A stretch of DNA of 5,031 nucleotides from a virus (taxonomy: Duplodnaviria > Heunggongvirae > Uroviricota > Caudoviricetes), in IMG/VR virus record IMGVR_UViG_3300039368_000063. One strand, written 5' to 3'. Positions 512 through 5,031 of this stretch are shown here, piece by piece. The notes under the pieces were generated by a model. The model did no database searches, was not told the DNA's origin, and saw only the letters and a program-made list of their open reading frames with translations. The number at the start of each line of letters is the position of its first letter. Within the stretch, counting starts at the first letter, position 1. A program made the translations under genes and the position numbers.

Positions 512-2950
512 TTAAAAATCAGCCTGACTCGGGATCAGTTTTTGCCAGATAACTGAAACGTATTTTGCCTGGTAACGGGCGTCATCAAGTGCATTATGGC
601 GCTCACCTTCGAATGGAATAGCCGTTCTGGCATCGAAGTCTATGGCTTTCCCCAGCTCAACGATTGTGCGTACATCTCGATCGTTGTAGTAACGCCACGG
701 GCAGGGGATCCCCTGCCGTTCGTATGAACGGCGCAAAATCGTGTTGTCGAAGTTGGCTCCATTTCCCCAGACCTGAACAAAAAATTCACCGGAGTTTTCG
801 TCGATAAATTCCCGCAATTGTAACAGTGCATCATCTAACGGGATTTCATCGGTCATAATGGCAGATTGCGCTTCGCGTGATTGCTTAAGCCACCATTTAA
901 TGGTGTCCCGATCAATGACCCCGCCAGCAGTTTCCAGATCGATAGTCTTACTAAATTCCGGTCCCATATCTCCGGTTTGCGGATCGAAAAATATTGCACC
1001 TATTGAGATGATCGGGGCATCAGGATTTTTTCCCATGGTTTCAAGGTCGATCATTAGATGGTCACACGTCCTGCTGGTGGATGTGATAACATGATGACCG
1101 TTCACCGTAATTAAGGGATCTGCCGTCTCGCCAGTTTCACTATCGCTGGCGTGATCCTGAGCGCTGCCAGCATTCTCCTTGTGTGGATGTTCAGCGCCTT
1201 CCATTTCCTTCGGATCATTTTCCTGAACTTCAACCTGATTCTCTTCATCGAATGTTTCCTGGTATGTTGCGTCGCCCATCACCGCGCCACAATCAGGGCA
1301 GTTGCCGCCGCCGGTCTGACCGCAGGCGGTGCAGATCTTTTCCGGTTCCTGTTGCACTACTGGTTCAGGTTGTTTCGTTTCTGGCTCGTTTTGTAACGCA
1401 TTTGGGCTGTTTTGTTCCGCTTTCTGGTCGTTCTGTTCCGATTCTTGCTGGTTCTGGTTTACAGAATCGCGGGTTTCAATCCCCTTTACCCATTTCGGAT
1501 CATTCGGGTCGCTAATCCCTGCAACAAATTCTCCGCGAGAGGCAGCAAGCAACTTATCGGCGTCAGGCTGGCTGATATTGGCTGCCTGCATAATTTTGTT
1601 TACTTCGTCAGCGGTAACTTTTACCTGTGACTTGTCATCCAGCGGCTGCGGGTCCTGATGATGTTCAACTGTATCCGCTGCCATTGTTTCAGCCGTTGCC
1701 TGTTCATCTGCCATTGCGCCAGATGGTTGCGGGTTATCTTCATCATTTTTTTCTTCTTCTGTTTTGCACTCAGCAGCCAGTCCGCCGTTAATTTCTTCCA
1801 GGATATCTTTTTCCGGTGTATGCCGGGCAGCCATGAGCGTTTCAGCTGTGGGATTCTCGTGATCAGTTTCTGTCAGGTTGGCATTGATATACCCCTGAAG
1901 GCGCCCCGGGTAGTGATAAAACTCAGGGTGGGCGCTTCGGATAAGTGCAAAAATAGCTGCGCGGGAATAGTCCAGGATACCAGGGGTTGCGCGAAGTGCT
2001 GCGGACCATTCCCTGAACGGACTTTCTTTTTTCAGGACGATTTCTTTTGCGCGACGATAAACGCTGCCCGGAATTTCATAAATATTAAAATCCATCGGAA
2101 GTGTGGCTGCTGCAATCTCCACATCCAGCGCATCGAAGGTGTGTACTAAATTCGGATTGCGATCGGTTTTGTTCCCGCCACCGGCATTTGCACCGGAAGC
2201 CGTACGGGTGATACGCGAAACACGATTTCCTTTCATCCACTCTTTTGTCAGCAGACCCCGATCAGTGTAATCAGCGTCCAGGTATGCCTCGAAAAAAGCA
2301 GTTATCAGTCCCAGGTCTGAATTACCGGGATTAGGGAAAACTTTGTCAGTGTCGCGTACCAGTTTGTGAAGGTCGCGAATCTCCAGCGGGTCGAGCAGCT
2401 TTGTTTTGTGAGAAATGGCCAGGGCAGTAACAGCCGGCAGTTCTTCCGCCCGTGCTATATGTAATGCCTGAAGTTCTTCCCGTGCAACGTGCGTTACTGG
2501 TTTTTCGCTGCTGTGTTGCGCAAGCCAGCGAATGGGCAGCTCCTGACCAGAAACCGGCAGGAGCATATTCTCCTCAATCTCCGTCATGTCTTCGCCGTTG
2601 ACGTTGGTATTGTCAGTACTGGCTGGTTTCTCCTGCACGGAGGGAGAGGGCGCGATAAATACCATTGTAATGCCATCTTCCCCGCCTTTTTCGTATCGGT
2701 TGCAGAATTCGGTATCAAACACGCCTTCAGGTGGAAGGTCATTCACAACGGGTAAATGGACGCGAACGGGTTTTTTAAAGTCGTCTTCATCATAATCGTT
2801 GTCATCCATTGCGGTAATGCAGCGGGAGATGGCAACAGATAATTTTTTTGCTGTAGTCCAGTAAAAACCACCTTTAATTCCCAGACGTTTTCTGACTTTG
2901 TCATTTTTTGCTTCGCAATATAGCGCAAATTCTTCTTTATCAGTGCTCAT
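512..2950 (-). CDS. 812-aa prophage exonuclease: RecE (exonuclease VIII)-like N-terminal region + acidic Q/E-rich linker with a C4 zinc ribbon + C-terminal DEDDh (DnaQ/RNase T-like) 3'-5' exonuclease domain; probable intact counterpart of the Qin ydfE locus
   Basis: ATG at 2950 with GAGG 7 nt upstream; TAA at 514..512. Residues 630-812 carry the three DEDDh motifs: MIDLETMG (D635, E637), [12 protein letters not shown] (D735) and [13 protein letters not shown] (H785, D790). Residues 540-554 are [16 protein letters not shown] (C-x2-C-x7-C-x2-C). The N-terminal ~390 aa resemble, from memory, the N-terminal region of Rac RecE; this needs confirming by alignment. The gene sits where exo sits in a lambda pL operon, between dicB/ydfD and xis. 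Confidence 0.85.
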
Positions 2951-3042: not shown

Positions 3043-3231
3043 TTATCCAGCCGGTGTTTCGTTATTCAGGTACAGCGATACTTTTTTTACCGGGAGGCAT
3101 TCACCAGAAATTTTTTGCTCGTCTCTTGCCTGGAGGCAGGATTCTTTACTGGCATAAATTCCGGTAATCACATTCTGTGATTCACCCGTTATAAGAAAAA
3201 CCGTCATCATCAGTGCAAATGCTGAAGTCAT
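3043..3231 (-). CDS. ydfD: YdfD-like small prophage protein (reported lysis-type toxic protein of Qin), N-terminal hydrophobic segment
   Basis: 62 aa, MTSAFALMMTVFLITGESQ...EQKISGECLPVKKV...ETPAG, with a hydrophobic N-terminus. Its ATG (3231..3229) overlaps the dicB stop (ATGA), so the two are translationally coupled. The position immediately after dicB and the size match the Qin dicB-ydfD arrangement. Confidence 0.75.
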   Translation of the reverse strand: MTSAFALMMTVFLITGESQNVITGIYASKESCLQARDEQKISGECLPVKKVSLYLNNETPAG

Positions 3232-3416
3232 TGACGCTCTCCGAAAATACCAAGTTCAAGAAGAGCAATTCGGGAAAGTATGGAATTATCATTGAGCAGA
3301 TAAGGCTCATATTTCCTCATATTAATGGCATCTTCAGTAAACTCCCGGTTACTGAGCAGAACACCAATATCAAAACAACCTTCAGACGTATTAACGTTTG
3401 GTAATAACGTTTCCAT
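3228..3416 (-). CDS. dicB: DicB cell-division inhibitor (MinC-dependent division inhibitor of Qin-type prophages)
   Basis: 62 aa, METLLPNVNTSEGCFDIGVLLSNREFTEDAINMRKYE... closely parallels E. coli DicB (M.TLLPNVNTSEGCF.IGV..SN..FTEDAIN.RK). GAGGA lies 7 nt upstream of the ATG. The gene is about 180 bp downstream of the DicF terminator, as in Qin. Confidence 0.9.
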   Translation of the reverse strand: METLLPNVNTSEGCFDIGVLLSNREFTEDAINMRKYEPYLLNDNSILSRIALLELGIFGERQ

Positions 3417-3594: not shown

Positions 3595-3652
3595 AAAAAG
3601 GGCGGCAGAGCAGTCACGGAGTAAAACTGATACCGCCAAACGTCACCAGAAA
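3595..3652 (-). ncRNA. dicF: DicF small regulatory RNA (Hfq-dependent antisense regulator of ftsZ and other mRNAs) with its intrinsic terminator
   Basis: The reverse complement of 3600-3652 is TTTCTGGTGACGTTTGGCGGTATCAGTTTTACTCCGTGACTGCTCTGCCGCCC. This matches the 53-nt E. coli DicF as I recall it. It ends in a GC stem (GGCGG...CCGCC) followed by TTTTT (3599..3595). Confidence 0.9.
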
Positions 3653-3956: not shown

Positions 3957-4331
3957 TTAATGATTAATTGATATTTTGTTGTTTGATTCAACTTTCCCAT
4001 CGGATGTGTGATGCTTTAAATCACAGGAATTAATACTGCTTGCTGTAAAATGATTTTCAAGGGGAGCTATTCGAATCCCTTTCTTTTTCATTAACAAGCC
4101 AAATCCTTTATTAATGATGTCCATTAATTCCAGAAAGTATTTTTCATGTAAATCCTGGTTATCAGAGAGCTGCTTCTCTTCGTACAGCCCGATAAAGGCT
4201 TGGCGTACGTTACCGGATATATTGTCGATGGTTTCTTTTTCTACGGTACTCAGGTCAAGAGTCGCCAGTTGAGAGCGAACCACATTCGCTGCCATTTCCT
4301 GGAATGGCATTGGTAAATCTTTAAATTCCAT
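3957..4331 (-). CDS. Hypothetical protein, 124 aa, acidic and predicted helical, in a visibly AT-rich segment; no family recognised
   Basis: ATG at 4331 with GAGG 6 nt upstream, 22 bp after the ydfC-like stop. MEFKDLPMPFQEMAANVVRSQLATLDLSTVEKETIDNISGNVRQAFIGLYEEKQLSDNQDLHEKYFLELMDIINKGFGLLMKKKGIRIAPLENHF... The base composition is noticeably more AT-rich than the flanking genes. The C-terminal ~25 aa are low-complexity, so the true stop could be artefactually late. Confidence 0.6.
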   Translation of the reverse strand: MEFKDLPMPFQEMAANVVRSQLATLDLSTVEKETIDNISGNVRQAFIGLYEEKQLSDNQDLHEKYFLELMDIINKGFGLLMKKKGIRIAPLENHFTASSINSCDLKHHTSDGKVESNNKISINH

Positions 4332-4731: not shown

Positions 4732-4887
4732 TCACTCACCTGAGTTTCTTTCCAGCCAGCGACGGGCACCATTTTCGGTTTTAAACGTTTTGCTTTTGGT
4801 ATACGTCATCGCGGTGAACGTACCGTCCTGGTTGGGGAACACGCCACATACCAGAGATTCGCTGTTGCCAAGATCGATAGTATCCAT
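4732..4887 (-). CDS. ydfA: YdfA-like micro-protein (51 aa), first gene of the dicB-type operon
   Basis: Found by hand. ATG at 4887..4885 with GAGGT 5 nt upstream, TGA at 4734..4732. MDTIDLGNSESLVCGVFPNQDGTFTAMTYTKSKTFKTENGARRWLERNSGE. The 51-aa length and position match Qin ydfA. Caveat: the same frame stays open upstream to the window edge, so a longer ORF starting outside the window cannot be excluded. Confidence 0.5.
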   Translation of the reverse strand: MDTIDLGNSESLVCGVFPNQDGTFTAMTYTKSKTFKTENGARRWLERNSGE

Positions 4888-5007
4888 GCTGACCTCATTT
4901 CCCCTTAACGCCGGGGTAGCGGAACAAAAACCTGCTGCATAGTTATTAAAGTTTGAACCGCCCCGGGAATCCTGGAGACTAAACTTCCTGAGAAAGAGGT
5001 AAACAGG
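4888..5007. promoter_or_regulatory. Putative control region upstream of the minus-strand early operon, possibly divergent with a plus-strand gene starting at 5008
   Basis: 120-bp non-coding gap between the ydfA-like start and a plus-strand ATG. It contains AT-rich stretches (catagttattaaagtttgaa) flanked by GC-rich partial inverted repeats (gccggggtagcgg / ccgccccggg). I could not place confident -35/-10 hexamers. Confidence 0.3.
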
Positions 5008-5031
5008 ATGACTAAAAATACTCGTTTTTCC
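5008..5031 (+). CDS. Start of an unidentified plus-strand ORF (MTKNTRFS...), running off the window
   Basis: ATG at 5008 preceded by a strong Shine-Dalgarno (aaAGAGGTaaacagg ATG). Only 8 codons are visible, so no product call is possible. A minus-strand frame ending at 4905 overlaps antisense and is the alternative. Confidence 0.3.

Follow-up and report, generated by a model that had tools for sequence, protein, structure and literature searches.

A RecE-type N-terminal region joined to a DexA-like DEDDh nuclease domain in lambdoid prophages of Escherichia coli

In the early-left operons of lambda and of the Rac prophage, a 5'-3' exonuclease (Exo or RecE) is found together with an annealase (Bet or RecT). 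Does every nuclease encoded in this region of a lambdoid prophage belong to such a pair? The question is raised by a stretch of 5,031 nt (hereafter the window) from the tailed-phage record IMGVR_UViG_3300039368_000063. An open reading frame (ORF) of 812 amino acids (aa) had been noticed there, and it had been proposed that the protein ends in a DEDDh 3'-5' nuclease domain, has a RecE-like N-terminus and lacks an annealase partner. The ORF is real and occupies 512..2950 on the minus strand. Below we describe its modules and its neighbourhood, and weigh what the protein may do. The parts of the gene are as follows.

512..2950, minus strand: complete gene for the 812-aa RecE-N/DEDDh fusion exonuclease; stop codon at 512-514
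545..1060, minus strand: DEDDh exonuclease domain (predicted 3'-5'), aa 631-802; PF16473, Rv2179c-like, DexA branch
1073..1810, minus strand: acidic, mostly disordered linker, aa 381-626
1105..1109, minus strand: module junction, codon 614-615, equivalent to RecE residue 591-592, where DNA and protein homology to K-12 recE ends
1289..1333, minus strand: zinc-ribbon-like CxxC-x7-CxxC motif, aa 540-554 (C540, C543, C551, C554)
1469..1555, minus strand: linker island, aa 466-494 (about aa 461-500), with LAASRGE...DPKW, in both RecE-type and DEDDh-type proteins
1811..2950, minus strand: structured N-terminal region, aa 1-380, with an alpha/beta module (aa 1-100) and a helical module (aa 115-380), common to RecE
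2384..2782, minus strand: Exonuc_VIII (PF06630) match, aa 57-189 (Pfam E 2.7e-33)

A DEDDh domain at the RecE nuclease junction

Pfam assigns aa 631-802 to PF16473 with 227.4 bits against a cut-off of 27 (E 1.3e-67), and the match spans profile positions 2-177 of 177. The five catalytic residues proposed earlier (D635, E637, D735, H785 and D790) are present in the translation, show no variation in the family alignments and correspond to D7, E9, D119 and the H-x4-D motif of the T4 protein DexA. Structure and fold searches agree with Pfam that the C-terminus is of the DEDDh class, with the RNase H-like DnaQ fold, and not a PD-(D/E)XK nuclease. Consistently, BLASTP aligns nothing significantly with RecE residues after ~592, which make up its nuclease domain, and the protein contains no match to DUF3799. 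From its membership in the DEDDh family, the protein is predicted to be a 3'-5' exonuclease that depends on a metal, probably Mg2+. Its substrate is more probably DNA than RNA. When PDB sequences were searched with a profile of the domain's close family, DexA was recovered at E 4.6e-15 and Rv2179c was not reached; hence a DNase is favoured over the 'exoribonuclease' that appears in one of the database names of the protein.

The rest of the protein resembles RecE. BLASTP aligns aa 58-615 with residues 50-592 of K-12 RecE at 58% identity, with nothing significant beyond. The original prediction of a RecE-like N-terminal region thus holds for this segment, but not for the first ~57 aa, which differ from RecE. 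The NCBIfam RecE equivalog NF007259 matches aa 1-615 over profile positions 1-603 of 877, and its score of 907 remains below the cut-off of 1269. At the DNA level, homology with recE stops at codon 614 of the nuclease gene, which is codon 591 of recE and lies just ahead of the RecE nuclease domain crystallised as 3H4R.

The full-length model consists of three parts, namely the structured aa 1-380, the low-confidence aa 381-626 and the DEDDh domain. For aa 1-380, AlphaFold2 (AF2) gives predicted local distance difference test (pLDDT) values mostly of 85-96, and the blocks best conserved in the family alignment are aa 61-100 and aa 225-380. PF06630 is matched by 32 of the 34 aligned family members. 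A profile search found no relative of the N-terminal region with a solved structure. The linker is acidic, as had been proposed (54 D/E versus 16 K/R, net charge -38), and its pLDDT is below 50 over most of its length, yet it contains two islands common to RecE, aa 466-494 and the cysteine motif. Apart from conserved islands, its occupancy in the family alignment is low. The CxxC-x7-CxxC motif is nearly identical in K-12 RecE and would be expected to bind metal; AF2 confidence is low at this place.

The comparison with RecE of Rac can therefore be drawn closely. The aligned stretch takes in the Exonuc_VIII region and the acidic linker with its Cys4 motif and LAASRGE...DPKW island, and each of the two genes comes late in a lambdoid early-left operon, with xis-int further downstream. 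However, RecE ends in a PD-(D/E)XK 5'-3' nuclease (DUF3799, PDB 3H4R), whereas the window protein carries the DEDDh domain instead, and recE is followed by recT, whereas the window gene is not.

Modules of this kind are encountered in several combinations. A search of 1.84 billion cluster representatives returned 11,738 relatives; homologue searches with the full-length protein yielded near-identical E. coli sequences only, and the diversity described here comes from the representative search and from a scan of genome contigs. Proteins with a RecE-type N-terminus fall into three classes, which carry a DEDDh domain, the RecE PDDEXK domain (DUF3799) or neither. The DEDDh fusion makes up at least 17 clusters at 50% identity, and among the alignment members Exonuc_VIII is combined with the Rv2179c-like domain in 20 and with PDDEXK DUF3799 in 9. 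One protein, P0241, joins an N-terminus 88% identical to K-12 RecE to a DEDDh domain 98% identical to that of the window. The combination in P0241 points to recent shuffling, and the modules are thus still exchanged at the linker.

The N-terminal end is mosaic, too. In phage Tritos, an 823-aa variant (L002:9045-11516) shares its linker and DEDDh domain with the window protein but differs in its first 245 aa. In the Qin prophage of K-12, the pseudogene ydfE (L004:10079-10999), which is cut by IS2, corresponds to the first 256 aa of this Tritos-type variant (99% identity). It was also considered as a fragment of the window protein, but BLASTP between the two was empty. A separate rearrangement is seen in P0247 (703 aa), where RecE residues 1-528 (99% identity) are joined directly to RecT (97% identity); this looks like a deletion of the RecE nuclease domain that fused two genes.

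Loci without an annealase

As predicted, xis lies directly downstream of the nuclease gene. The two are separated by 52 nt with no gene in between, so that no bet- or recT-like gene stands between the nuclease and the integration module. The equation of this place with that of lambda exo is only approximate. The gene is found in the same general early-left region, but the intervening genes differ, lambda having several ea/orf genes between exo and xis and Rac having recT, ralR and rcbA.

An annealase just outside the window was searched for in several sets of loci, and none was found. The same prophage is found intact in strain Eco889 (L001), where a LexA-like repressor, this operon, xis and int are followed by potC. 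In this complete prophage, no annealase is annotated by PGAP or matched by PHROG, either left or right of the repressor; its right arm carries CII-like, O-like, DnaC-like, DUF1627, DUF968/HNH and RusA genes. Phage Tritos, with the same gene order as L001, likewise has no annotated annealase. Using tblastn with K-12 RecT, lambda Bet, Exo and Gam, P22 Erf and Abc2 and the RecE nuclease domain as queries, no match was obtained in 80 IMG/VR loci, which carry the DEDDh domain and were each taken with up to 10 kb upstream. The same queries found nothing in L001, L002 and L005-L013, and BLASTP detected no RecT, Bet or Erf in 28 loci with the fused gene from different species of Enterobacteriaceae. 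Because L001, Tritos, the 80 viral loci and the 28 fused loci are alike in this respect, the absence of a RecT/Bet/Erf-type annealase is a consistent feature and not an effect of the window edge.

A few loci have larger ORFs near the nuclease, which were considered as hidden annealases. They proved to be DUF6932, a split Exonuc_VIII fragment, a ParB-like protein, SSB and DUF2800. One further ORF of 310 aa near the nuclease has no Pfam match and occurs in two loci only. P22 EaC, encoded by the last gene before xis in P22, was rejected as a homologue, having no Pfam family and no BLAST relation.

Lambda Red (Exo/Bet/Gam) and SynExo recombinases are found in the same general early-left region of lambdoid phages as the window gene. 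However, lambda Exo has no sequence or fold relation to the window nuclease and acts with the opposite polarity, and no homologue of Bet, RecT, Erf or Gam is present near the window gene. Two-component recombinases are distinguished by an adjacent annealing protein and by a 5'-3' exonuclease that leaves 3' tails on double-stranded DNA. Neither applies here, the polarity of the window nuclease being that predicted from its family. According to its title, a 2026 paper (PMC13048471) reportedly finds that mutation of xonA (Exo I) enhances RecET-mediated assembly; host Exo I, with the same polarity as that assigned to the window protein, thus appears to oppose such assembly.

The gene is not rare. 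DNA coding for the DEDDh domain (window 515-1105, at least 85% identity) is present in 4051 of 5426 complete E. coli genomes (75%), with up to seven copies per genome, and recT plus RecE-nuclease DNA of Rac in 1728 of these genomes (32%). In most E. coli prophages sampled, the 'exo/bet' or 'recET' slot is thus occupied by a nuclease of predicted opposite polarity and by no annealase. At least 1000 contigs carry the identical protein (P0122), and among Enterobacteriaceae an intact ORF is seen in 28 species-level genomes. Its maintenance in these genomes, on this number of contigs and in this fraction of E. coli points to selection for function; in view of the intact, conserved ORFs across genera, a reading of the gene as a pseudogene or relic is rejected.

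With regard to frequency, the gene is ordinary. It is among the commonest E. coli prophage genes and is already annotated at the domain level, and its architecture is visible in domain databases. The exact protein is listed as 'exodeoxyribonuclease VIII', 'exonuclease' or '3'-5' exoribonuclease', and PGAP names it 'exonuclease' (WP_000102132.1). For many such proteins the label 'exodeoxyribonuclease VIII' is wrong for the catalytic domain and could mislead the mining of genomes for recombineering tools. What is surprising is the opposite polarity, the consistent absence of an annealase and a prevalence above that of RecET.

Possible role of the nuclease

Among proteins of known structure, T4 DexA (exonuclease A, PDB 8KEL/8KEN) is the only PDB match by sequence and the top Foldseek match. 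Both DexA and the window domain belong to PF16473, and their DEDDh residues align. DexA is a phage-encoded 3'-5' DNA exonuclease with a role in scavenging host DNA (PMC12153337). In contrast to the window protein, it is a stand-alone protein of 227 aa from a virulent phage and has no RecE-type N-terminus; identity to the domain is ~22-28%, and DexA has extra loops, including that of D169.

The second characterised relative is EcD, an E. coli homologue reported to digest DNA containing 5-hydroxymethylcytosine (5hmC) and, when expressed from a plasmid, to protect from T4 (Kang et al., NAR 2025, PMC12153337). We located EcD in E. coli genomes via the cloning primers in the supplement of PMC12153337; position 78 counted from the primer ATG is Ala, as that paper states for EcD. 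Over 186 aa, EcD and the C-terminal domain of the window protein are 38% identical (E 1e-39), and they have the same DEDDh residues; EcD is a stand-alone protein of 189-193 aa, whereas the window domain is part of an 812-aa fusion. In E. coli S19-651 the gene (L177:8989-9570) belongs to the early genes of a P2-like prophage and is flanked by small DUF genes on one side and by ParE-like, Dam and gpA genes on the other. Hence, EcD is phage-encoded and not a chromosomal defence gene.

Our best explanation, which we hold with modest confidence, is that the window protein, a domain-swapped RecE relative, works by itself as a 3'-5' DNA exonuclease when the prophage is induced. The RecE N-terminal platform (aa 1-380) and the acidic linker are kept, and at the RecE nuclease junction there is a DexA-type DEDDh domain whose two-metal active site is complete. 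In intact prophages the protein would be made upon induction or infection, as the product of a late gene in the early-left operon repressed by DicA or cI, and it would work without any phage annealase. By removing nucleotides from the 3' ends of linear or nicked DNA, it would degrade or trim the DNA of the host, of a competitor or the phage's own ends; because the 3' ends are removed, no 3' tails would be left for annealing of the Red/RecET type. The RecE-type N-terminal module would serve as a platform independent of the attached nuclease and may target or scaffold it toward DNA ends or a host factor.

In the original prediction it was offered as a speculation that the protein processes nucleic acid of invaders or of the host instead of serving Red/RecET recombination. 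This would fit DexA and EcD, and the interpretation is supported at both the structural and the genomic level.

Several observations weigh against this explanation. According to PMC12153337, DexA also takes part in double-strand-break repair (intron homing), so that a recombination-related role of the window protein is possible. Among the 47 stand-alone loci, one has Erf and SSB next to the gene and two more have SSB, all in more distant bacteria, and in alphaproteobacteria members are found with DUF2800-type replication modules. For the remote annealase types Sak4, Rad52-like and Gp2.5, of which none was seen, coverage extends to one prophage, annotated with PGAP and PHROG, and to selected ORFs compared with Pfam. 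Fold searches returned matches for the DEDDh domain and none for the N-terminal platform, and full-text literature searches found no functional, biochemical or genetic study of any RecE-N/DEDDh fusion.

The strongest rival is a weapon between phages of the HREX (EcD) type. In this case the DEDDh domain would selectively degrade the modified DNA (5hmC or similar) of superinfecting T-even-like phages and protect the lysogen or the induced cell. The relationship to EcD, which is itself encoded in the early region of a P2-like prophage and for which 5hmC-specific digestion and T4 resistance are reported (PMC12153337), argues for such a role, as does the wide distribution of the gene in E. coli, the host of T-even phages. 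The EcD result comes, however, from plasmid expression in a single study, and the window protein does not share the residues to which that study links 5hmC recognition and the dimer-only state. The HREX signature comprises a Trp as W152 of DexA, an acidic residue as D169 and the loss of D90. The window protein has Tyr755 at the first position; at the last, where EcD has Ala, it keeps Asp707. D169 is part of an insertion specific to DexA and without counterpart in the window domain, and the loop alignment is uncertain there.

Moreover, the gene stands at the far end of a repressed early operon, and a promoter scan found no promoter-like site ahead of it, giving no support for independent expression. 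Its expression in an uninduced lysogen is therefore doubtful. PADLOC, too, has no matching model for the gene. Taken together, we consider a role of the HREX type unlikely. The anti-T4 claim made for EcD and HREX concerns the same domain family, of which the lambdoid version is far more abundant.

Quite unlikely, too, is a factor for recombination or repair that is independent of an annealase. Such a protein would trim 3' ends or flaps, so that host RecA/RecFOR or replication restart could finish the repair of double-strand breaks; it would resemble DexA in T4 intron homing, with the N-terminal platform targeting it as in RecE. The 560-aa platform is indeed common to a genuine recombination nuclease, RecE, and the gene occupies the same operon slot as recET in related prophages. 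Full-length RecE, including its N-terminal region, enhances linear-linear recombination (review PMC11611040), and the role of DexA in intron homing is documented in PMC12153337. A RusA resolvase is encoded in the same prophage, and one stand-alone homologue lies within an Erf-SSB module. On the other hand, annealing and strand invasion lose their substrate once 3' ends are removed, the reported effect of the xonA mutation on RecET-mediated assembly speaks against such a role, and the fused form has no conserved partner across genera. An RNA exonuclease like M. tuberculosis Rv2179c, which would trim or degrade the 3' ends of host or phage transcripts or of small RNAs such as DicF, is very unlikely, considering that the family profile detects the DNase DexA and not Rv2179c, that the two closest characterised relatives (DexA and EcD) are DNases, that the N-terminal platform derives from a DNA exonuclease and that no dicF is found near the fused homologues in other genera.

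Returning to the domain-swapped, annealase-independent exonuclease, a wider proposal may be attached to it, which is possible but doubtful. The RecE N-terminus could be a general targeting platform to which nucleases of opposite polarity have repeatedly been attached, and the DEDDh form could be an annealase-free degrader of DNA ends at induction, commoner in E. coli than RecET. It might then eliminate 3'-ended DNA, be it from competitors or from the host, feed nucleotide salvage, or suppress host recombination that depends on RecA or is of the annealing type, which would be a function without counterpart in the lambda Red paradigm. The natural pairs of proteins that have the same N-terminal platform and different nucleases offer a direct way to probe the RecE N-terminus.

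Fused and stand-alone loci and the surrounding operon

A scan of one genome per species gave 80 loci. In 28 of these species-level loci the domain is fused to a RecE-type N-terminus, and the protein has a length of 641-851 aa; such loci occur, among other genera, in Escherichia, Klebsiella, Enterobacter, Citrobacter, Kluyvera, Pluralibacter, Buttiauxella, Kosakonia, Atlantibacter and Scandinavium. The typical fused operon consists of a DicA-like helix-turn-helix repressor, 0-3 small ORFs, the nuclease, xis and int, and in nearly all 28 loci the repressor and the nuclease are separated by fewer than four small ORFs.

Stand-alone DEDDh genes of ~190 aa (e.g. P0104, P0118; Salmonella and Klebsiella forms) are 57-62% identical to the domain, and stand-alone forms of the MIDLETMG type are 70-90% identical. 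In prophages of Salmonella and other enterobacteria, the stand-alone gene is the last early-left gene before xis-int, which is the same slot as that of the window gene, but without a RecE-type N-terminus. It is often located downstream of YfdP, DUF2303 (YfdQ) and a YfdR-like HD-type deoxynucleoside monophosphate phosphatase. The neighbourhood of exonuclease and phosphatase hints at a nucleotide-turnover module. In CPS-53-like prophages (L005-L009, L110-L137), the stand-alone DEDDh gene follows YfdP, DUF2303/YfdQ and the YfdR-like gene (PHROG 318) at a distance of one to several genes, and a DndB-like gene is sometimes present. The fusion gene is broken up in some E. coli genomes, as in L010:737-3127, where it forms three ORFs of 456, 157 and 183 aa. 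Among the database entries of ~180 aa whose sequence starts with MIDLETMG, many are probably fragments of disrupted fusion genes and not true stand-alone genes.

The window as a whole covers the distal part of an early-left operon, which belongs to a Qin/DicB-type lambdoid prophage from E. coli, and every gene in it lies on the minus strand. Besides the nuclease gene, the following features were identified.

1-76 and ~4960-5031: ends of insertion sequences (IS) of the IS3 family, found thousands of times on chromosomes and plasmids of E. coli
36..212, minus strand: integrase N-terminus (58-aa ORF), Arm-DNA-binding domain only, truncated by the IS end after ~45 codons
181..459, minus strand: excisionase gene xis (PHROG 629, E 5e-26; Pfam Exc); the start chosen by PGAP is equivalent to position 450
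3043-3231, minus strand: DUF1482/ydfD-like gene, directly upstream of the nuclease gene and in the same operon
3228-3416, minus strand: dicB, the other of the two genes directly upstream of the nuclease gene, same operon
3600-3651, minus strand: DicF small RNA, same operon (Rfam 76.7 bits, cut-off 48)
3957-4331, minus strand: 124-aa ORF between ydfC and DicF
between the ydfA-like gene and the 124-aa ORF, minus strand: ydfB and ydfC
4732-4887, minus strand: DUF1391/ydfA-like gene

The nuclease gene has a GAGG ribosome-binding site 8 nt ahead of its ATG at 2950. The right IS end lies upstream of the ydfA-like gene, where L001 and other intact prophages carry the repressor region. The copy in the window is an IS-bracketed prophage remnant in which the nuclease ORF itself is intact; with IS ends on both sides, this copy may be separated from its native promoter. 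The 124-aa ORF has no Pfam family and is not present in the Qin operon of K-12; it matches PHROG 6937 (function unknown) over its full length. Outside Escherichia (L100-L146), fused loci have dicB and ydfD replaced directly upstream of the nuclease by small ORFs conserved across genera, which encode an Rrf2-like winged-helix protein of ~120 aa (PHROG 24072) and proteins of 128 aa (PHROG 13002) and 71 aa.

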